Shown here: piece after piece, positions 10,792 through 60,571 of the stretch
Position numbering within the stretch: position 1 is the first letter of the stretch
Layout: each line of letters starts with the position of its first letter
From: Mediterranea sp.
Lineage (GTDB): Bacteria > Bacteroidota > Bacteroidia > Bacteroidales > Bacteroidaceae
Direction of reading: 5' to 3'
Assembly: GCA_031261785.1 (NCBI GenBank)
Contig: JAISIZ010000094.1
Coordinates: 1,471-65,470 of the forward strand
Length of the DNA: 64,000 nt
Notes under the pieces: generated by a model
Databases searched by the model: none
The model's input: only the letters and a program-made list of their open reading frames with translations
Told to the model about the DNA's origin: nothing
Position numbers and translations under genes: made by a program

Positions 10792-12468
10792 GTGTACTCG
10801 AACAAACAAAACATTCTCGAATTGGTGGCCTTGCTGCGAGAGCACGGGGTGACAAAGGTCGTCCTCTGCCCCGGCAGCCGTAACGCGCCCATCGTGCACA
10901 CGCTCTCCACCTGCCCCGACTTCACGTGTTACTCCGTGACCGACGAGCGGGGAGCGGGTTACTTCGCCATCGGACTGGCGCTCAACGGGGGCGCTCCAGC
11001 CGCCGTGTGCTGCACCTCGGGCACGGCGCTTCTCAACCTCCATCCCGCCGTGGCGGAGGCTTTCTACCAGCAGGTGCCGCTGGTGGTCATATCCGCCGAC
11101 CGTCCCGCCGCCTGGATCGGGCAGATGGACGGGCAGACGCTGCCGCAGCCCGGCGTGTTCGGCACGCTGTCGAGGAAGTCGGTCACCCTACCCGAGATCC
11201 ATTCCGACGAGGACCGATGGTACTGCAACCGGCTCATCAACGAGGCGCTATTGGCCACACACCACCACGGCAAAGGGCCGGTGCACATCAATGTCCCACT
11301 CTCCGAACCGCTGTTTGAGTTCACCGTGGCCGAGCTGCCCAAGGTACGTGTCATCACCCGCTACCAAGGGCTGAACGTGTACGACCGTGCGTACGACGAT
11401 CTCATCCTGCTCCTCAACCACTTCCGCAAACGGATGGTCGTCGTGGGGCAGATGAACCTCATCTACCTCTTCGAGAAACGATACGTCAAGCAACTCCACA
11501 AGCACTTCGCCTGGCTCACCGAGCACATCGGCAACCAAACCGTGCCGGGTATCCCGCTCAAGAACTTCGACGCGACCATCAACGCCATGTCCGAAGCCCA
11601 GGCCGAGGACATGACGCCCGACCTGCTCATCACCTACGGCGGGCACATCGTCTCCAAGCGGCTGAAGAAATTCCTCCGCGCGCACCGCCCCAAGGAGCAC
11701 TGGCACGTGTCGGCCGACGGCGAGGTGGTCGACCTCTTCGGCTCGCTCACCACCGTCATCGAGATGGACCCTTTCGAGTTCCTCGAGAAGATAGCCGGGC
11801 TGATCGACTCCGAGACCCCCGATTTCCCCCGTATGTGGGAAAACTATTGCAAGGAGATTCCCGAACCCAACATCGCCTACTCCGAAATGTCGGCCGTGGG
11901 TGCCCTCATCAAGGCGTTGCCCAACCCGTGCGCCCTGCATCTGGCCAACAGCTCGGCCGTGCGCTACGCCCAGCTCTACACCTTGCCCCCCAACGTGGAG
12001 GTGTGCTGCAACCGGGGTACCAGCGGCATCGAGGGGTCGCTCTCGACCGCCGTGGGCTACGCCTCCGTGTCGGACAAGCTGAACTTCGTGGCCATTGGCG
12101 ACCTTAGCTTCTTCTACGACATGAACGCCCTGTGGATGGGCAACAACATCCGCCCCAACCTCCGTATCATGATGCTCAACAACGGCGGCGGAGAGATTTT
12201 CCATACCTTGCCGGACCTCGACATGTCGGGTACTTCGCACAAGTTCATCACCGCCGTGCACAAGACTTCGGCCCGAGGATGGGCCGAGGAGCGGGGATTC
12301 GTCTACCTCCGCGCCGAAAACGAGGAAGAGCTGGCCGAAGCCATGACCTCCTTCGCCCGCCCCGAAGCGCAAGAACGGCCACTCCTGCTGGAGGTGGTGA
12401 CCAACAAGAACAAGGACGCCCGTATCCTGAAGGAGTATTACTATCAATTACGACAACAACAATCATAA
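10792..12468 (+). CDS. menD: SEPHCHC synthase
   Basis: [57 protein letters not shown]. Confidence 0.97.
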
Positions 12469-12480
12469 ACCATAAAGCGT

Positions 12481-13305
12481 ATGTCCACACCAAGAGAATG
12501 GATACCCATCCGTGAGTATCAAGACATCCTGTTCGACTTCTACAACGGGATTGCCCGTATCACCATCAACCGCGAGCGTTATCGCAATGCTTTCACTCCT
12601 ACCACTACCGCCGAGATGAGCGATGCCCTTCGCGTCTGCCGCGAGGAGGCCGACGTCAACGTCGTCGTCCTCACCGGGGCGGGCGACAAAGCCTTCTGCT
12701 CGGGAGGCGACCAGAACGTGAAGGGACGGGGCGGATACCTCGACAAGGACGGCGTGCCCCGCCTCAGCGTACTCGACGTCCAGAAGCAGATACGCAGCCT
12801 CCCCAAGCCCGTCGTAGCCGCCGTCAACGGCTTCGCCATCGGAGGCGGGCACGTGCTGCACGTGGTATGCGACCTTTCCATTGCCTCCGAGAATGCCATA
12901 TTCGGACAGACCGGCCCGCGCGTGGGCAGCTTCGACGCCGGCTTCGGCGCCTCCTACCTGGCACGGGTGGTGGGGCAGAAAAAGGCCCGCGAGATTTGGT
13001 TCCTCTGCCGCAAGTACGATGCCCAAGAGGCGCTGCGGATGGGATTAGTCAACAAGGTCGTCCCGCTCGACCAACTCGAGGACGAGTACGTGCGATGGGC
13101 CGAGGAGATGATGACGCTAAGCCCCCTGGCGCTCCGCATGATCAAGGCCGGACTGAACGCCGAACTGGACGGGCAGGCGGGCATACAGGAACTGGCGGGC
13201 GACGCCACTCTCCTCTATTACCTCACCGACGAGGCACAAGAGGGAAAGAACGCCTTCCTCGAGAAGCGTAAACCCAACTTCAAGCAATACCCCAAGTTTC
13301 CGTAA
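12481..13305 (+). CDS. menB: 1,4-dihydroxy-2-naphthoyl-CoA synthase
   Basis: Crotonase fold [29 protein letters not shown]. Confidence 0.97.
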
Positions 13306-18886: not shown

Positions 18887-20140
18887 ATGAAAAAGAATGA
18901 ATTGTGGACCGATAAGCTGAAGCAACGGCTGAGTGAGCACACGCCGCCGCTGCCACCCGACGGATGGGAACGACTGGAGCGGGAGCTTGCGCCCACGCCC
19001 GTGATGAAGACGCGCCCCCTTCGCCAATGGGTACGGATGGCTGCCGCCGTAGCCGCGCTCGTAGCCCTCTCCACCGCCGCATATCTCTACTGGGTGCCCG
19101 ATGGAGCGACCGAGCTGGCGCAAACCGCCCTACCCGGAACCTCGCCCGACCTCCTGCCATCCCACCCCCTGCCCGATAGCTCCACCGCCGCTCCCCATAC
19201 TTTGCCGGTAGTTACCGCACGCCCTGCCCATACGGGCGAGAAACTCATCGCGCAAGCCCGAACCGAGGAGGAAAAAGCCATACCGCCCGACACTCCCGCC
19301 GACGAAGGCGAGCAAACGGCGATATCCTCTGGCACTCCCACCGGCGTAAAGAAAGACAGCGACAAAGAGAAAGACACCGACAAGGAGAAGGCCATCGGCA
19401 CCACCCAAAAGCGGACACGCCCCGCACGTCCTTCATCCAAAGACAAATATCAGCTCCCCGCGGAGAAGACTCCTAAGCGTGGAGGTGGCTGGTCGATGGG
19501 CATATCGGCCGCTGGCGTCATCGCCTCCTCAGACGGGACTATCGAACGAGGCAACGGCTATCCCTCGCGGATGAACATCGCTTCGTCTGCCGATGCCTTG
19601 GTGGAGGTTCCCAAGGGCGAACAAGTGGTGTTTAACGACGGCGTGCCCTACCTGCTCGCCGGTAATCAGATAACCGACATCAAGCACCGCCAGCCTATCT
19701 CGGTAGGCGTGTCGGTACGCAAGGCGCTACCCCGCGGCTTCTCCGTCGAGACGGGGCTGACCTACACCTTGCTTTCCTCCGACGTCACCCTGTCGGGATC
19801 CGAGCGTGCCGTCAGCCAGAAACTGCACTACATTGGCCTACCCGTCCGTGCCAACTGGAATTTCCTCGAGAAGCGACTCGTCACCCTCTACGCCAGCGGC
19901 GGCGGCATGGTGGAGAAATGCGTGTATGGCAAGCTCGGTTCCGACAAGCTTACCGTGAAGCCCCTGCAATTCTCCGTCATGGGAGGCGTGGGCGCGCAGA
20001 TCAACGCCACCAAGCGCGTCGGATTCTATGTCGAACCCGGCGTGGCCTACTACTTCGACAATGGCTCTGCCGTACGCACCATCCGCAAGGATACTCCCTT
20101 CAACTTCAACTTGCAGGCCGGACTACGATTGACGTATTAA
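18887..20140 (+). CDS. Dual-membrane-spanning anti-sigma factor (Reo/Dma1-like)
   Basis: Short cytoplasmic N-domain (WTDKLKQRL...GWERLE), TM helix, long P/T/E/K-rich linker, C-terminal beta-barrel ending LRLTY; follows the ECF sigma gene. Confidence 0.8.
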   Translation: MKKNELWTDKLKQRLSEHTPPLPPDGWERLERELAPTPVMKTRPLRQWVRMAAAVAALVALSTAAYLYWVPDGATELAQTALPGTSPDLLPSHPLPDSSTAAPHTLPVVTARPAHTGEKLIAQARTEEEKAIPPDTPADEGEQTAISSGTPTGVKKDSDKEKDTDKEKAIGTTQKRTRPARPSSKDKYQLPAEKTPKRGGGWSMGISAAGVIASSDGTIERGNGYPSRMNIASSADALVEVPKGEQVVFNDGVPYLLAGNQITDIKHRQPISVGVSVRKALPRGFSVETGLTYTLLSSDVTLSGSERAVSQKLHYIGLPVRANWNFLEKRLVTLYASGGGMVEKCVYGKLGSDKLTVKPLQFSVMGGVGAQINATKRVGFYVEPGVAYYFDNGSAVRTIRKDTPFNFNLQAGLRLTY

Positions 20141-20250
20141 AGAATTCCTGGCTTCATCACTTTTCCCCGCCATCGCATAGCGTGCATGGATAATCAATCA
20201 CTTACTGTCCGTGTCGTCGTGAGCGAATCTTCGCTGACCGGCGAAGAGCT

Positions 20251-20302
20251 TACGCGCCGCATGGAGATTTCGCAGGGGCGACAAATTTCAATCGCGGATT
20301 CG
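20251..20302 (+). repeat. Dispersed ~52-bp non-coding element, copy 1
   Basis: 45/52 identical to the reverse complement of 58904..58955, with a 24-bp perfect core CGACAAATTTCAATCGCGGATTCG. Confidence 0.9.
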
Positions 20303-20422
20303 TGAGAAGCGGGAAGCCCAGACTTTTGTAATCAGATTTCGGGAATGGAGAAAAAAGCCCGGGCTTTTGTAATCATACTTCGTGCATGAAGAAAAAAGCC
20401 CGGGCTTCTCGTCCCACGCGAA
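20300..20422. repeat. Three degenerate 41-bp tandem units with palindromic core AAGCCCGGGCTT
   Basis: Cores start at 20314, 20355 and 20396 (exact 41-bp period). Confidence 0.8.
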
Positions 20423-20446
20423 CCCGCGTGAAACATTTCGCTCATT

Positions 20447-22078
<1,632 letters not shown>

Positions 22079-22155
22079 AATTCTTGTACTTTATTACGTT
22101 CTCTATATTAACGATTTACGTTGTTTCTTTGTTTCTTTCCCGCGAAGATACTCAT

Positions 22156-24147
22156 TTACCCGCCCACCTGTTCCATGCGGGCGATTAATTCGTCGCCCAG
22201 GGCGGTCTTCACCTCGATATGGCGCAGCACGGCGGTGACGAAGGGGTTGCTCTCGAAGTCGCCTCGCACTTGCTCGAAGTCGAGCTTCATCTCGTCGTGC
22301 GAGCCGTCGGCTCCGAAGCCCGTCATGGAGGAGAGGGAGAACTCCTTCTTGGCGTCCTCGTAGATCAGCTTGTCGAGCTTCACCACCGCCTCTTTCCAGG
22401 CGCGCACGATGGCGATCACGTCCTTGGCCGTGACGCGCTCGGGTTCCAGTCCGTAGAATTCCCCGATCTTGGCGTAGGCCCATGTCCATTCGTAGGTGTA
22501 GTAGTTGGCGTGCATCCGTTCGAAGGCGGCGTTGATGCCTTTCAGCTGGTTGATGTTTCCGTTCTCTATGCCGTCGAGCAGGCGGTCTACCTCGCTCTTG
22601 GGGGCTATCAGTCCCGAGATGTCGACCCATTCGCCCAGCCCGATCTCCGTGTCGGGGCGCAGGCGTCGGCGTATCTCCTCGTCGCTTTGGAAGAGGGTGC
22701 CCTCCAGGCGCTTGATGATGGAGTTGCCCAGGAACTTGTTGATAGCTATCTCGTAGAAGGCGACGCCTTTGTTCAGTGCCGAGTTGCGTATCTTGGCGCT
22801 TTGGTAGGAGTATATCTCCGACGTCTCGCCCGACACCCGTTTCAGCTCCTTCAGCAGGTGGCGTCCGGCGAACATCTTTTGTATGGTGTAGGGGCTTAGC
22901 AGGTTGTAGTTGATGTAGTCCAGCCGGTTGGGGTCGGTGCGCTTGTCGCGCTTGGGCCACTTCTGCGCGTCGCGGATGGTGCCCACGCTGCGCAGGTTCA
23001 CTCCCGGCACGAGGTAGGTGGTGTTGCGGTCCTCGATGAGGTAGGAGAAGGGGAGGTTGGAGGTGTCGGCGTGGTTGACGTGGCGTCCCATTACCAACGA
23101 GAAGGCCCCTACCCGTGCGGGCCACAGCACGTACGAGTCCGAGGTGGTTTTCGCTCCCCGTTCCAGCGTGCCTTGGTGTATGGGTCCGAGCTTGTACATG
23201 TGGTTGCTCTGGTTGGATCCCGAGCCGGCGTTCATGAACGAGAACATACCGGCGATGAGCAGGGTCGACTTGTGGTGCGTCACGGTGAATGGTCCCGCGA
23301 AGATGGCGCATGCCTCGCCGTTCTCGCCTTGGCAGTTGCTGAAGAAGAGCGAGTCGGAAGCCGAGTAGTTGTGTCCCAGCTTGCAGGCCTGTCCCACGAA
23401 ACAGCGGGTGAGCATCGTGCCGTCGTCGACGGTGGATCCCGACGAGATGATGAAGTCGTCGCAAATCACCCCGTGGCCGATGTAGACCGGTGCCTCGGCG
23501 TTGCTGTTGACGCTGCCGTTGGAGAGGCGGCTGGCTCCGTTGATACGGCAGCGGTCGCCTATGCGCACGGCTTTGATGGATCCGGTGTTCAGGATTGTCA
23601 CGTGGTGGCCGATGACGCCTGTCGCCGCGGCATGCTTGTTGGAGTAGAAGTCGGCTATCGCCTTCATCCGGCAGATCAGCTCGGGACGGTGCCGGTAGAG
23701 TGCCAGGATATAGGCTTGGTGCGCGGAGAGCTTGTCGTTGATAAGTACCTCGCGGCCTCCTGTCTCGTTGAGCACCGCCACCTCCACGCCGTTGCCGAAC
23801 GTGCTCATGCCATCTACCAGGATGGTGTCCACGTTCTCGATGAGCGTGTGGTCGCCAATCTCGTAGTTGGCGATATAGTTCTGCACGTTCTCGATGAGGC
23901 AGTTGTCGCCCACCGTCACTTGGTGCAAGGTGGCGTGACGTATGCCCGAATGTTTCTTCAGTCCTCCCGGCATCACGAACTCTGTCTCGAACACGCCCAG
24001 CCGTACTTCGCCCGAGAAGCGGGCATGGTGGACATACTCGCAGGTGAACCGCTTGTCCACCCTCACTTTTTCCCAGTCGTCGGCTTCGCACGCTTGGTTA
24101 GTCAGCCGAAGTTTCTCCGCTTCGGTCAGTTTACGGTATTCTTTCAT
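22156..24147 (-). CDS. DUF4954-family protein with left-handed beta-helix repeats (663 aa)
   Basis: Hexapeptide-like repeats; GPFTVTHHKSTLLIAG, GSGSNQSNHMYKLGPIHQG typical of the family (recall). Confidence 0.75.
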   Translation of the reverse strand: MKEYRKLTEAEKLRLTNQACEADDWEKVRVDKRFTCEYVHHARFSGEVRLGVFETEFVMPGGLKKHSGIRHATLHQVTVGDNCLIENVQNYIANYEIGDHTLIENVDTILVDGMSTFGNGVEVAVLNETGGREVLINDKLSAHQAYILALYRHRPELICRMKAIADFYSNKHAAATGVIGHHVTILNTGSIKAVRIGDRCRINGASRLSNGSVNSNAEAPVYIGHGVICDDFIISSGSTVDDGTMLTRCFVGQACKLGHNYSASDSLFFSNCQGENGEACAIFAGPFTVTHHKSTLLIAGMFSFMNAGSGSNQSNHMYKLGPIHQGTLERGAKTTSDSYVLWPARVGAFSLVMGRHVNHADTSNLPFSYLIEDRNTTYLVPGVNLRSVGTIRDAQKWPKRDKRTDPNRLDYINYNLLSPYTIQKMFAGRHLLKELKRVSGETSEIYSYQSAKIRNSALNKGVAFYEIAINKFLGNSIIKRLEGTLFQSDEEIRRRLRPDTEIGLGEWVDISGLIAPKSEVDRLLDGIENGNINQLKGINAAFERMHANYYTYEWTWAYAKIGEFYGLEPERVTAKDVIAIVRAWKEAVVKLDKLIYEDAKKEFSLSSMTGFGADGSHDEMKLDFEQVRGDFESNPFVTAVLRHIEVKTALGDELIARMEQVGG

Positions 24148-35237: not shown

Positions 35238-36482
35238 GTGTCTTTCCCCCTGTTCATTGCCCGCCGCATCTACCGCGAAAGCGATGGTGGAAAGCAGGTG
35301 TCGCGTCCGGCGGTGCTCATCGCCATGGCGGGCATCGCCATCGGGCTGGCGGTGATGATTATCGCCGTGGCGGTGGTGATAGGCTTCAAGAGCAAGGTGA
35401 GGGACAAGGTGGTAGGCTTCGGCTCGCACATACAAATCGTGAATCTCGACGCGGTGAGTTCGTACGAGACACGTCCCGTGGTGGCCGACGACAGTCTGCT
35501 GCGTGTCCTCTCGGCCTATCCCGGCGTGACCCACGCGCAACGCTTCTCCACCAAGCCCGGCATGATAAAGACCGACGACGCGTTCCAGGGCATGGTGCTC
35601 AAGGGAGTGGGACCCGAGTTCGACCCCACCTTCATGAGGCAGTACCTGGTGGAGGGCGAGATCCCCGCCTTCAGCGACACGGCCGCCACCAACCTGGCGC
35701 TCATCTCGAAGACGCTGGCCTCGAAATTGAAGCTGAAGCCGGGCGACAAGATCTATACCTATTATATACAGGACAACATCCGTGCCCGCCGCTTACAGAT
35801 AGCGGGCATCTACCAGACCAATTTTTCCGAGTACGACAAGCTCTTCCTCATCACCGATCTCTACCTGGTGAACCGCCTGAACGGTTGGCTACCCGGGCAG
35901 GTGACGGGCGTGGAGCTACAGATACGCGACTACGGCCAACTGGCGCCCACCACCGACGCCATAGCCTCGCGTCTTGACACCCGGCCCGACCGCTACGGCG
36001 GCGTGTACTACGTGCGCAGTGTCGAGCAGCTCAATCCGCAGATATTCGCATGGCTTAGCCTGCTCGACCTCAACGTATGGGTCATCCTCATCCTGATGAT
36101 AGGCGTGGCGGGATTCACCATGATCTCTGGACTGCTCATCATCATCATCGAGCGCACCAACATGATCGGTGTGCTGAAGGCGCTGGGCGCCACCAATTTC
36201 ACCATCCGCAAGACGTTCCTCTGGTTCGCCGTCTTCCTCATCGGCAAGGGCATGCTGATAGGCAATGTCGTCGGCATCGCCCTCTGCCTGCTTCAGTCGG
36301 CTTTCGGCCTGTTCAAGCTCAACCCCGAGACTTACTACGTGGACACCGTCCCCGTCTCCATCAATCCCCTGCTCATCCTGCTCATCAACGTCGGTACGCT
36401 GGCCGCCTCGGTGCTGATGCTCATCGGCCCGTCGTTCCTCATCACGAAGATCCATCCCGCACGCTCCATTCGCTACGAGTAG
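35238..36482 (+). CDS. lolE: LolC/LolE-family lipoprotein-release ABC permease
   Basis: IAIGLAVMIIAVAVVIGFK, ERTNMIGVLKALGA, YYVDTVP; 4-TM FtsX-like topology. Confidence 0.85.
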   Translation: MSFPLFIARRIYRESDGGKQVSRPAVLIAMAGIAIGLAVMIIAVAVVIGFKSKVRDKVVGFGSHIQIVNLDAVSSYETRPVVADDSLLRVLSAYPGVTHAQRFSTKPGMIKTDDAFQGMVLKGVGPEFDPTFMRQYLVEGEIPAFSDTAATNLALISKTLASKLKLKPGDKIYTYYIQDNIRARRLQIAGIYQTNFSEYDKLFLITDLYLVNRLNGWLPGQVTGVELQIRDYGQLAPTTDAIASRLDTRPDRYGGVYYVRSVEQLNPQIFAWLSLLDLNVWVILILMIGVAGFTMISGLLIIIIERTNMIGVLKALGATNFTIRKTFLWFAVFLIGKGMLIGNVVGIALCLLQSAFGLFKLNPETYYVDTVPVSINPLLILLINVGTLAASVLMLIGPSFLITKIHPARSIRYE

Positions 36483-36503
36483 GGCGATAAATCCCAATCG
36501 CGG
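36482..36503 (+). repeat. Partial degenerate third copy of the dispersed element
   Basis: GGGCGATAAATCCCAATCGCGG vs GGGCGACAAATTTCAATCGCGG (19/22), directly after the lolE stop. Confidence 0.55.
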
Positions 36504-57051: not shown

Positions 57052-58815
57052 ATGCGTAAAAGAGGAATTTCATTTGTTTACCTTGCATTAAATGTTTTCA
57101 TGCATCTCCATGCCGTGGAACAGAACCCTTTCGCCGATATGGCGGCGGGCAAATCGTACTTATCGTACATTGGGCAACTGCACGACGTGGGACGTAGATT
57201 GGACAAAACACGTCCCGACGAGTGGCTGCTCACTATTTCTCGGCTGCGCGAGGCTGGAAAGACGGACTTGAATATGGAACTGGAAGCCCGATTGTTGGAA
57301 ATCAGGTACCGACAAGACGTGGAAGGCCAGTCGGCGCACGTCAGCGCGGACGAGCAGGTGGAACTCGCTGCCCGTGCGGGAAGTAGTGGCCACATTTATG
57401 CGCGGTTGCGCATCCTCTTCACCCTTTTCAGTAATTACCGGAATGTACTAAAGGACTTCGAAAGCGCCATCGGCGTGGCGGAAGAGATTGTCGCGACATC
57501 CTCCGGGGTGGACGAGAAGACGTTTCCCTGCATCCTCCGTTACTACGCGGAAATTGGTGAGCTGTGCTGGCTGTTGGGATACTACGACGAGATGCAGGCT
57601 TTGATGACGTATGTGACGCGAAGTCCGCATGCGGCCCATAGTGTACGCGCTCTGGCGTTGGCTTACAATTACATGGGTCTTTATAACCTCTATCAAAAAC
57701 GTTATGATGACGCCGAACACATGTTCCGTCTCATTAGCCATCGCCAGCACATTGCCAGCATGGACGCGGAGGTGGACGATGAATGGGCTGCCATAGCCGA
57801 GGGCAACGTCGGCTACGTCCTTTACAAACGAGGGGAGTATGAACAAAGCGTTCCCTACCTGAAAACAGGATTGGAAGGTGCGTCCAAAGGGGGACGCGGC
57901 ATTTACGCCGCATGCAAGTTCGCTGTTGCCCTGGGCGACATTTGTGTCAACCTCAACCGTCTCGATTCGGTGGAATATTACATTCGGGAAGCAGAGAGGT
58001 ATAACAAAATCAGCCCCTTCGGCCGGCATGAATTTGATCTTTGGATCCTAAGGAGCGAATATAACTTTGCCTTGAAACAGGAACACGAGGCAAGGGCGGC
58101 TCTTGACTCCGCGCTCGAAGCTTCTTATCGTTTTCGTGAGGCGTTCAATCTCAATAAGGGGGTGCGTTTTAGCCGCGGCACGCGCATAGAGAAAGGCGAG
58201 AGCACGGATGCGCGTTTCCTTGTGTCGCTGGTGGCTCTCGTCATTTGCCTTGGCGGCTACCCGCTATATCATTACTATCGAAAAAAACGCGTGGCTGCCC
58301 CTCCCCCTCCCCCTGAGTCGACATCCACGGGAGAGTATGGGGAATTACTTTTCAATCGGATAACCCAATATATGGAAGAAGAGAAAATTTATCTGCAAGC
58401 CGACTTCAATCTCAAAAAGATGAGTTGCGACTTGGGCATTAATCGTTCGTATCTCTCCTCGGCCATCAACACACATGCCCGATGCAATTTCCGTACATTA
58501 GTCAACAATTACCGTGTACTTGAGGCTATCGGCTTGCTCGAAAAGAACGACGAAAACAATCTTTCCATCGAAGCTATCGGCGAAAAGGTGGGTTTCCCCG
58601 ATCGTTTCCGCTTCTACAGGGTGTTCAAGGATATCACTAAATCCAGCCCGATGCAATACCTGAATCAGCGAAACGACATCGCCGACAACACCTCCATGGA
58701 CAACCTGTCAATCCGGATAGATTGGTTGAAGAAGGGTGAGAACAATAGGAGCTCATCGCGCTTAAACAGGTTCAAGGCCAGATGGAGGGAGATACGCGAA
58801 AGTACGTGGCCCTAA
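57052..58815 (+). CDS. Membrane-spanning TPR + AraC-HTH transcriptional regulator
   Basis: N-terminal hydrophobic segment, TPR-like helices (AYNYMGL, GNVGYVLY), TM FLVSLVALVICLGG, AraC domain (GINRSYLSSAIN...IGEKVGF...FYRVFK...SPMQY). Confidence 0.85.
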   Translation: MRKRGISFVYLALNVFMHLHAVEQNPFADMAAGKSYLSYIGQLHDVGRRLDKTRPDEWLLTISRLREAGKTDLNMELEARLLEIRYRQDVEGQSAHVSADEQVELAARAGSSGHIYARLRILFTLFSNYRNVLKDFESAIGVAEEIVATSSGVDEKTFPCILRYYAEIGELCWLLGYYDEMQALMTYVTRSPHAAHSVRALALAYNYMGLYNLYQKRYDDAEHMFRLISHRQHIASMDAEVDDEWAAIAEGNVGYVLYKRGEYEQSVPYLKTGLEGASKGGRGIYAACKFAVALGDICVNLNRLDSVEYYIREAERYNKISPFGRHEFDLWILRSEYNFALKQEHEARAALDSALEASYRFREAFNLNKGVRFSRGTRIEKGESTDARFLVSLVALVICLGGYPLYHYYRKKRVAAPPPPPESTSTGEYGELLFNRITQYMEEEKIYLQADFNLKKMSCDLGINRSYLSSAINTHARCNFRTLVNNYRVLEAIGLLEKNDENNLSIEAIGEKVGFPDRFRFYRVFKDITKSSPMQYLNQRNDIADNTSMDNLSIRIDWLKKGENNRSSSRLNRFKARWREIRESTWP

Positions 58816-58903
58816 CCCGAGGCGAGGTTGACGCGGGGTGAACTCCGCTCACCGATAGGCTGGTAGATGCCCGTGGGGAAATTGAAGGCGTAGTAAGTCT
58901 TCC

Positions 58904-58955
58904 CGAATCCGCGATTGAAATTTGTCGATCTCGCGAAACCTCCATGCGGTGCGTG
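58904..58955 (-). repeat. Dispersed ~52-bp non-coding element, copy 2
   Basis: Reverse complement matches 20251..20302 at 45/52; begins 11 bp after the MFS stop. Confidence 0.9.
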
Positions 58956-58966
58956 ATTACACGGAA

Positions 58967-60571
58967 TCAGATCATGTCGTCGCCCGTCTTGGCGTAAACC
59001 ACCTTGATGGTCTTGTGGAAGGGAATAAAGCGCGACACGACGGCGATCACCAAAGTGATAATCATCATGTAGCCCAGAATCTCCTTCAGCGCCAGCAACG
59101 TGCTTTGCTGCATCAGGGTGGTGTAGAGGTTGTTGGTGGCCATCTGCGCCGCCTCGGCGTGGCCGTGCCCTTGCGCGATAGCCGACTGCAGGGCTTGGTT
59201 GTAGCGCGACACGGCCAGAGGGTCGACCGAGGTGACCGTCTCCGAGAGCGAATACATGTACGACTGCTGCAAGCGATAGAGGGCGTTGCTGAAGAAGGCC
59301 GTGCCGAACACGGGCGCCAGCACCGAGCGGAGGGCGATCATGAAGAACGCGTTGGGGATGAGGTAGCGGGGATCGAGATCCTCGGTGGCGAACAGGGCGA
59401 AGGCGATGAACAGCACCATCATGCCCACGCCGCGCAGGAAGATGGGCAGGTAGAGCATCTCGTAGGTGGATCGGGGCGAAACGGTGAAGTAGAGGATGCC
59501 GAAGAAGAGGGTGAAACAGCCCATGCCCCCCGCGATGAGGAAGCGGAAGCGCCACCGCTGCCACCTGAACCACCAGAAGCAGATCAGCCCGCCCACGGCG
59601 AAGCTGAGCGGCATCCAGATGTAGAGCGTGTAGGTATGGGTGGCGTCGACCTTGAGGATCGCGGTGAGGTAGTTGGTGATGAGCGTGGTGGAGCTGCTGA
59701 AGAACATGGCCAGCATCATGTAGAAGTAGGCGATCATGCACTTGGGCTGGAACAGTGGCATGAGGTTGACGTAAGGGTGGCGCGAATAGTGCTCGCCCCA
59801 GATAAAGAGCGCGATGAGCATGGGCGCGAGCACGATGTAGACGCAGACGCGGGCCGAACCCATCCAGTCGAGCAGCTTCCCGTAGTTGACGGCGTACATC
59901 AGCATGAGCAGCCCGGTGGAGATCACGGTCACCTCGCGCACGTGCAGCTCTTTCCAACCAATGGCTTGCAGCGGCTTGTTGTGCCTGAAGCAGATGGCCA
60001 CCAGCAAGATGGCCAGCAGGATAAGGAGCATCATGAAGTAGTACATGTACTTCCAGTTGTAGTGGTAAGCCAGCTGCGCCGTGAGCACCATCGAGAGCTG
60101 TCCGCCGCCGTACACCATGGGATAGAAGTAGGCGTAGAATTCGCTGCGGACGTCGTTCTTGCTAAAAATTCGCTTGGAGTAGCGGATGAAGAGCACGATG
60201 ATGTACTCCTTGAGGAAGCCGATGGTGAAGCTGCACACGATGAGCACGTCGATGGAGCTGGTGCGGGCGCAGATCCAGCTCAGGAAGAACTGCAGGGTGA
60301 GGTCGGCGATGATGAGGAGCTTGGCCGAGACGGCCGACAGCACTCTCGGCACCAGCGGATAGCCTACCGCCATGCCGGCGGCGGCGGAATAGAAACCCAT
60401 GGTGATGTCCTCGGCATTGGTGCCCAGCGTGCCCGACACCTCGACCATGCTGCCCGTGTACGAGCCGTTGAGCATCATCACCGGCAGCACGGCGGCGAAG
60501 ATGGTGACCGTGCCCAGCCAGTCGGGTACCCAGTCGCGGACGGGTATCCCGAGTTCTTTCATCGATATCAT
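58967..60571 (-). CDS. MFS (EmrB/DHA2-like) efflux permease
   Basis: About 14 hydrophobic segments; in an operon with EmrA-like and TolC-like genes. Confidence 0.85.
   Translation of the reverse strand: MISMKELGIPVRDWVPDWLGTVTIFAAVLPVMMLNGSYTGSMVEVSGTLGTNAEDITMGFYSAAAGMAVGYPLVPRVLSAVSAKLLIIADLTLQFFLSWICARTSSIDVLIVCSFTIGFLKEYIIVLFIRYSKRIFSKNDVRSEFYAYFYPMVYGGGQLSMVLTAQLAYHYNWKYMYYFMMLLILLAILLVAICFRHNKPLQAIGWKELHVREVTVISTGLLMLMYAVNYGKLLDWMGSARVCVYIVLAPMLIALFIWGEHYSRHPYVNLMPLFQPKCMIAYFYMMLAMFFSSSTTLITNYLTAILKVDATHTYTLYIWMPLSFAVGGLICFWWFRWQRWRFRFLIAGGMGCFTLFFGILYFTVSPRSTYEMLYLPIFLRGVGMMVLFIAFALFATEDLDPRYLIPNAFFMIALRSVLAPVFGTAFFSNALYRLQQSYMYSLSETVTSVDPLAVSRYNQALQSAIAQGHGHAEAAQMATNNLYTTLMQQSTLLALKEILGYMMIITLVIAVVSRFIPFHKTIKVVYAKTGDDMI

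Follow-up and report, generated by a model that had tools for sequence, protein, structure and literature searches.

The repeats in the window (the whole stretch of 64,000 nt analysed here) are very probably MITEs, that is, non-autonomous deletion derivatives of insertion sequences (IS) of the IS1634 family (IS4-related, DDE), of a 1684-bp Bacteroidota type. They are an ordinary kind of selfish DNA and not a new RNA element. Their ends are homologous to those of the IS, they are present in many copies in intergenic DNA, four of them are flanked by direct repeats, and for one copy the empty site is found in a congener. Between the ends lies a core made of two inverted arms around a minisatellite (X-array-X'), which we infer to be of foreign origin. 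A species-specific REP- or MITE-like repeat had been proposed in the preliminary description; the MITE part of that proposal stands on the TIRs, the approximately 100 intergenic copies, the duplications, the empty site and a middle part that is in no other genome searched, and what did not stand is the size and the boundaries.

Copies in the window and anatomy of the complete element

The match from which the analysis started was reproduced exactly, with positions 20251-20302 (+) and 58904-58955 (-) identical at 45/52 positions around a 24-bp perfect core (CGACAAATTTCAATCGCGGATTCG). These two stretches had been described as an element of about 52 bp that should have many copies genome-wide. 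The copies are there, since genome-wide BLAST and an nhmmer profile search yielded 105 clusters of copies and fragments in the genome (3.77 Mb in 131 contigs, 57% G+C; the assembly is 94% complete and highly fragmented). The unit is a different one: full copies measure 510-590 bp, the 52-bp stretch is an inner piece corresponding to MITE positions ~203-254, and copy 1 belongs to an element of ~295 bp that extends over window positions 20145-20440 and from which the right end is absent. A near-complete 67-nt stretch around the core is present in 47 of the 105 clusters.

The anatomy of a complete copy was determined from an end-to-end alignment of five complete copies. These begin (TT)CCTGACTTCATCAC... 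and finish ...GGGTGGCGCATTGACGAAGTCAGG(AA), with 13-nt TIRs (left (TT)CCTGACTTCATCA, right TGACGAAGTCAGG(AA)) and with CCTGACTTC(A/G)TCA at both ends. The 13-nt TIR core has 61 hits in the genome, which fall into two inward sequence types, left and right. Inside the left end are subterminal GGGTGGCG(C/T)A repeats, which are probable transposase-binding sites, then a well-conserved stretch, and then arm X. The centre is a head-to-tail array of 2-7 units of a 41-bp sequence (AAAAAAGCCCGGGCTTTTGTAATCAnATTTCGGGAATGGAG), flanked by arms X and X', which are mutually inverted, imperfect copies. The order in a full copy is left TIR, subterminal repeats, decayed promoter and ~22 codons, X, array, X' and right TIR. 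The features recognised in the window are as follows.

20145-20207 (+): left end of copy 1, TIR and subterminal sequence (model 2-63; nhmmer with the MITE profile, E 6e-13)
20145-20159 (+): TIR of copy 1, (TT)CCTGGCTTCATCA (TIR scan)
After 20207: internal deletion in copy 1 of ~88 bp (model ~64-151)
20204-20230 (+): relic of transposase codons ~11-22, ACTGTCCGTGTCGTCGTGAGCGAATCT = TVRVVVSES (translated hmmsearch; DNA-level alignment)
20231-20313 (+): arm X of copy 1 (model ~185-262), which holds 20251-20302 (nhmmer E 1.9e-41 for 20204-20350)
20314-20407 (+): 41-bp minisatellite of copy 1, 2.3 units of AAAAAAGCCCGGGCTTTTGTAATCAnATTTCGGGAATGGAG (TRF at C15:21784-21877; full-copy alignment)
20408-20440 (+): start of arm X' in copy 1 (model ~440-473; the nhmmer alignment stops at model 473)
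36482-36503 (+): proposed copy 3, which agrees with copy 1 at 19 of 22 positions and lies immediately 3' of the stop codon of a MacB/LolE-type FtsX permease gene
58898-58962 (-): copy 2, a solo 65-nt fragment of arm X (model 192-259; nhmmer E 1.3e-14)

Copy 1 lies a few bases 3' of a same-strand OMP beta-barrel gene (18887-20140), and its left end is homologous to the 5' ends of IS1634-family IS. The ~88-bp deletion took out the subterminal GGGTGGCG repeats as well as the relics of the promoter and start codon. The TVRVVVSES relic has its counterpart in intact transposases (GTISVVVVSKAS), but its coding function is lost. Arm X, which is imperfectly complementary to arm X' beyond the minisatellite (reverse-strand self-hits, profile search), has no counterpart in the IS, whose profiles match nothing past MITE position 180. 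The copy is truncated at 20440 and has lost the remainder of X' together with the right TIR and the relic of the transposase stop codon; the fumarate hydratase gene beside it ends at 20447. A scan of its flanks gave no direct repeat. The flanking genes (OMP beta-barrel and class I fumarate hydratase) are neighbours in 0/8 congeners, and the empty-site test failed for this copy; truncated and repeat-less, it therefore sits at a synteny break, and the site is possibly a recombination junction between MITE copies.

Copy 2 carries neither TIRs nor minisatellite and is located between the stop of a same-strand MFS transporter gene (58967-60571), a few bases 3' of it, and the 3' remnant of another gene. 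When the whole intergenic region was searched by BLAST, solely the arm X stretch was repeated. The gene remnant that adjoins it (58813-58907, -; ...GKTYYAFNFPTGIYQPIGE...) has 77% DNA identity to a stretch on another contig of the nearest congener (G527). The site of copy 2 looks like a deletion junction; its intergenic region is not conserved in congeners, and the empty-site test failed here as well.

A partial third copy had been claimed at 36482-36503. No shuffle of the window reproduced its 19/22 match to copy 1. However, outside the recognised copies the genome has no second 22-mer of this kind, the MITE profile search misses it at E<=10, and in local alignment to full elements it scores at best 12.5, where shuffles give 12.0 +/- 1.6 and random window segments 12.5. 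It is unsupported as a member of the family and is at most a tiny relic.

Across the genome, the left end is present in ~20-27 clusters, the right end in 33-39 and the X core in 54-64 (of 105). Genes were called with a codon-bias model (2470 genes, 84% coding), and an overlap of more than 30 nt with a called gene is seen for only 2 of the 105 clusters, a distribution that would be explained by selection keeping MITE copies to intergenic DNA. Approximately 30 clusters touch a contig end, which makes the 41-bp arrays a major cause of breaks in this short-read assembly; the MITE explains a good share of these breaks, and should be masked in annotation, lest pieces of it be called small ORFs, sRNAs or terminators. 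Copies are mutually 80-92% identical and most are truncated, with the TIRs and the relic promoter region being the best-kept parts.

Origin of the ends and insertion into target DNA

The ends of the MITE are shared with full insertion sequences. A search with the 23-nt right end (CCTGACTTCRTCAAYGCGCCACC), which covered a single genome of each species, found more than 107 matching loci in many Bacteroidota, often at contig ends, including Bacteroides, Prevotella, Parabacteroides, Odoribacter, Alloprevotella, Tannerellaceae, Paludibacteraceae, Lentimicrobiaceae, Saprospiraceae and others. Nine of these loci contain a full IS of 1677-1685 bp delimited by the same ends, with a gene for a protein of 508-517 aa. 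The protein of one of them (L045) scores 373 bits against the IS1634-family transposase model NF033559 (cut-off 100) and also matches Pfam PF01609 (DDE_Tnp_1), and eight further transposase homologues are 59-62% identical. A match to a known IS end, which the preliminary description had listed among the outcomes that would refute its proposal, is present in that the MITE ends are IS1634-family ends.

Profiles of the first 420 nt (5') and the last 300 nt (3') of seven such IS delimit the shared parts. Nucleotides 1-180 of the MITE match the 5' profile of the 1684-bp IS (nhmmer, E 1e-27 to 1e-30) in one colinear alignment that takes in the TIR, subterminal repeats, promoter region and gene start, while the last 30-55 nt match the 3' profile (E 1e-6 to 1e-8). 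The first ~22 transposase codons survive in decayed form in the 5' part, where translated full copies read LYVCGKKESSGTVIVVVVGESS and transposases have MYVRKKKNRSGTISVVVVSKAS (hmmsearch; profile lyvrkkknrsgtisvvvvskas), and the last ~4 codons plus the stop are retained inside the right TIR. The IS profiles detect no homology between positions ~185 and ~490, a stretch in which the 52 bp lie. The MITE is thus a chimera, since its middle ~300 nt have no detectable IS origin.

Two candidate links were set aside. Arm X read as a continuation of the transposase frame (codons 18-37, in another frame) shows a suggestive similarity with a score below zero, and no claim is made from it. IS1634-family IS with CCTGACTTC ends occur in ~10% of congeners, and those in G481, G012 and G487 were considered as the parent; their left ends are too distant, being farther from that of the MITE than the Prevotella/Bacteroides-type 1684-bp IS, so the congener IS is not the parent.

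Transposase supplied in trans would presumably have spread the MITE copies by cutting at the TIRs, and staggered cuts in the target at insertion would leave long direct repeats of variable length, of which 14-58 bp are seen. Four MITE copies whose left end is intact have direct repeats that abut the element on both sides:

C101: direct repeat of 14 bp, 1 mismatch
C41: direct repeat of 22 bp, 3 mismatches
C16: direct repeat of 32 bp, 2 mismatches
C125: direct repeat of ~58 bp, 1 mismatch

Unrelated flank pairs score 9 or less, and flank pairs of truncated copies are not above chance. In the same flank scan, two complete copies (C27 and C33) have no direct repeat. The 32-bp repeat around the copy at C16:42525-43215 contains a Bacteroidetes-type promoter box (TATCTTTG) and lies upstream of a gene starting MDAVKEIPYGMSNFE.

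For the copy on C125, an empty-site query was made from both flanks joined by one copy of the repeat and searched in 120 congeners. The query is contiguous and the repeat region single-copy in ~100 of them, as expected for the 3' end of a conserved relA/spoT-like gene, which is what this region is. In a pairwise alignment the nearest congener, G527, aligns over both flanks with the 58-bp sequence single and the element absent, and is the empty site for the insertion. The duplication restored an intact end of the relA/spoT-like gene beside the insertion, so the 58 bp let the MITE enter the gene end without truncating the gene. At this locus (C125:34102-34500; L118:1099-1497) the ~58-bp repeat abuts a right end that is without a TIR and truncated near model position 488. 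A repeat beside a TIR-less right end is not explained by simple cut-and-paste.

Long repeats of this kind have precedents. The direct repeats of IS1634 and IS1549 are long and variable (8-514 bp) and their mechanism is not known, the usual duplication in the IS1634 family is 5-6 bp, and long repeats are documented for two members only (PMC2266710). The MITE repeats of 14-58 bp, from four informative copies only, fit the long variable type. The L045 element in Ca. Parvibacillus calidus (CP058702, 5536-7212) is an intact IS1634-family IS of 1677 bp; on its two sides the end of a solute-binding-protein gene is duplicated over roughly 400 bp, which also fits this type.

The family now looks like a fossil. 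It is probably old and inactive, since copies are only 80-92% identical and mostly truncated and the direct repeats have mismatches. A search of the genome for an autonomous IS (NCBIfam NF033559 over its cut-off, tblastn and six-frame hmmsearch, with nine transposases) found no intact transposase, and the sole IS1634-like trace is an unrelated C-terminal fragment on C53. Given an assembly that is incomplete and broken into so many contigs, a multicopy autonomous IS could be hidden in the gaps.

The inner part of the MITE gave only chance-level matches of 31-34 nt in 40 relatives and then in 400 genomes of 35 same-family genera, and JGI metagenome contigs gave zero hits with the 24-nt core and the minisatellite unit as queries. 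The composite MITE is therefore lineage-specific as far as these collections reach. Elsewhere, other derivatives of the same IS occur in the form of ~104-bp mini-MITEs, internally deleted IS of 591-962 bp and MITEs with other inner sequences, and the minisatellite is in none of these. Because the ends are conserved across much of Bacteroidota, one search pattern finds the full IS, the ~104-bp mini-MITEs and the other derivatives in many gut genomes.

The inner core and alternative readings of the repeat

It might be that the X-array-X' core belongs to a broader class of intergenic elements of this genome that has not been described, a proposal that we regard as doubtful. If true, a shared period among unrelated sequences would point to a mechanism that sets the length, or to a protein able to recognise or create phased palindromes of 41 bp, and the IS1634 ends would have captured one such unit. 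The genome contains 137 non-overlapping tandem arrays with a period of 40-42 bp, and 0 of them are in called genes (examples are C1:12242-12474, C14:42163-42553, C76:9234-9677 and C92:4195-4585; in the window there is only 20314-20407). Sixty of the 137 consist of the MITE unit, and the other 77 fall into at least 20 families with unrelated unit sequences and a short palindrome in each unit. When the flanks of the other 41-bp arrays were compared to X and X', only adjacent true MITE copies and 13-15-mers matched. Arrays with a period of 22-23 bp are enriched as well (46 arrays, 3 in genes), and a 400-kb sample of the congener G078 has 22/23-bp arrays and their multiples, with the 41-bp class absent.

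At least one of these further array families is itself a composite dispersed element of ~500 bp, the second in this genome, in which 5-6 units of CCGCGAACTGTTCACGCGAACCGCATGGCCGTCTGTCAGGC stand between a conserved leader and tail; it was found at 13 loci (among them C1:~12000-12700, C14:~21700-22400, C65, C79, C61, C27, C104 and C121). Its ends look like imperfect inverted repeats of ~40 bp (GGCTCAYGCGCA..TCCGTGG..), and on C79 it runs into the MITE at a short motif common to both.

That the repeat is instead a functional RNA module under selection (a 3'-UTR stabiliser, terminator or sRNA), with the 52 bp as its conserved core, is very unlikely. The reading draws on the position of both window copies just downstream of same-strand genes, from which it had been claimed that the element is always 3' of a gene in sense orientation. 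This is true of these two, but genome-wide the orientation is near random, with 38 clusters in the same and 26 in the opposite orientation relative to the upstream gene, and 34 and 33 relative to the downstream gene. Conservation likewise does not single out the 52 bp, which at 0.86-0.87 are no better kept than the rest of the element, compared to 0.95 for the TIRs, and the element is in none of the relatives searched.

Folding was also considered, since whole elements fold far better than shuffles (z -3 to -7) and every 41-bp unit contains the palindrome AAAAGCCCGGGCTTTT. The strong fold of the whole element comes from the palindromic arms and the array; a MITE would be expected to fold in this way, and no function follows from it. 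By themselves the 52 bp fold no better than shuffles (z -1.6 and -0.6), and the consensus fold of 36 copies reaches -3.2 kcal/mol with a covariation term of -0.25 kcal/mol and a double change in just 2 of its 17 pairs. The (G)CGA-N10-TCGC hairpin that had been proposed can form in a minority variant, but most copies read ...TCGACAAATTTCAACCACGG. An Rfam scan of 19800-20700 at E<=10 gave a best E of 0.12, far under the gathering score, and a simple promoter/terminator scan of 19900-20700 gave no site. The analogous BrickBuilt element has promoter activity (PMC4596501), which would favor this reading; on the other evidence, the conserved 3'-UTR RNA or sRNA of the preliminary description is unsupported.

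Less probable still, and largely refuted, is the reading as a palindromic REP/REPIN-type repeat that a RAYT (Y1, IS200-like) transposase would have spread. The genome does encode a RAYT-like protein (C73:364-828; PF01797, 71 bits). Inverted repeats of ~135 bp surround its gene and are found again elsewhere in the genome as inverted doublets. Directly beside the gene lies an X-array-X' fragment without TIRs (C73:1066-1463), and the X and X' arms make a long palindrome. The repeats that flank the RAYT gene are, however, a different sequence family with the core GAGACGCGGCATGCCACGTCTC, and one adjacency in 105 clusters is within chance. Y1 transposases (IS200/IS605) make no target duplications, whereas full MITE copies end in IS1634-type TIRs and have them. 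By itself, the C73 locus resembles a REPIN-RAYT system of a Bacteroidota: the RAYT-flanking repeats (C73:60-1065; L138) occur as inverted doublets at ~15 other loci, and their core palindrome GAGACGCGGCATGCCACGTCTC occurs 30 times. A second PF01797 match lies within an 818-aa ORF (C31:92817-95270).

A small protein encoded by the repeat can practically be dismissed: a 39-aa ORF at 20186-20305 (MDNQSLTVRVVVSESSLTGEELTRRMEISQGRQISIADS) spans copy 1 and a 57-aa ORF starting within copy 2 has a similar peptide (MEVSRDRQISIADS), but the ORF start lies in sequence that is non-homologous in full copies, indels of 1, 3 and 10 nt and stops occur among copies with differing best frames, the motif VRVVV is a relic of the transposase N-terminus, and copy 2 lacks the first half.

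Comparison with known systems

The IS1634-derived MITE resembles several described elements in part. REP/BIME and REPIN-RAYT repeats are similarly intergenic, palindromic and sometimes tandem, but belong to other sequence families, and the MITE differs from them in its DDE-type TIRs and target duplications. With IS1634-family IS (IS1634 of Mycoplasma mycoides and IS1549 of Mycobacterium smegmatis; NF033559) it appears, from the four informative copies, to share long variable direct repeats, and it provides clean examples of such IS1634-type target duplications, the mechanism of which is not known. The 1684-bp Bacteroidota IS clade, seen in loci L013, L106, L078, L107, L060, L096 and L007, has the 13-nt TIRs, subterminal GGGTGGCGC repeats, and homologous first 180 nt and last 30-55 nt in common with the MITE. 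In contrast to these IS, the MITE is only ~550 bp long, the transposase gene is absent, and inverted arms of presumably foreign origin, with a 41-bp minisatellite, take the place of the middle.

The ~104-bp mini-MITEs of Prevotella- and Paraprevotella-type genomes (L032, L037, L052 and L103; also C48:471-568 of the present genome) have TIRs and subterminal sequence identical to those of the MITE. They consist of the left ~78-91 nt joined to the right ~26 nt, without X arms and without the minisatellite. In the library of papers searched, no published description of these mini-MITEs or of Bacteroidales IS1634-derived MITEs was found.

In architecture, the closest described analogue is BrickBuilt, a MITE of Porphyromonas gingivalis composed of a leader, an internal spacer-less minisatellite and a tail (Klein et al. 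2015, PMC4596501). It is strictly intergenic and species-restricted, with many truncated forms and few copies with both TIRs, and has a 23-nt unit, IS5-type TIRs (GAGACCTTTGCA), 19 copies, candidate duplications of 4-5 bp and no transposase remnant (PMC4596501). The likeness is one of architecture only, and includes a Bacteroidales host, a minisatellite inside the element between leader and tail, intergenic location, restriction to one species, many truncated forms and a small number of copies that have both TIRs. No sequence similarity to the published BrickBuilt sequences is evident, including at the TIRs (CCTGACTTC compared to GAGACCTTTGCA). The MITE described here differs in having a 41-nt unit, IS1634-type TIRs, ~100 copies or fragments, duplications of 14-58 bp and a clear relic of the transposase start, and it is a second case in Bacteroidales, after BrickBuilt, of a MITE built around a minisatellite.
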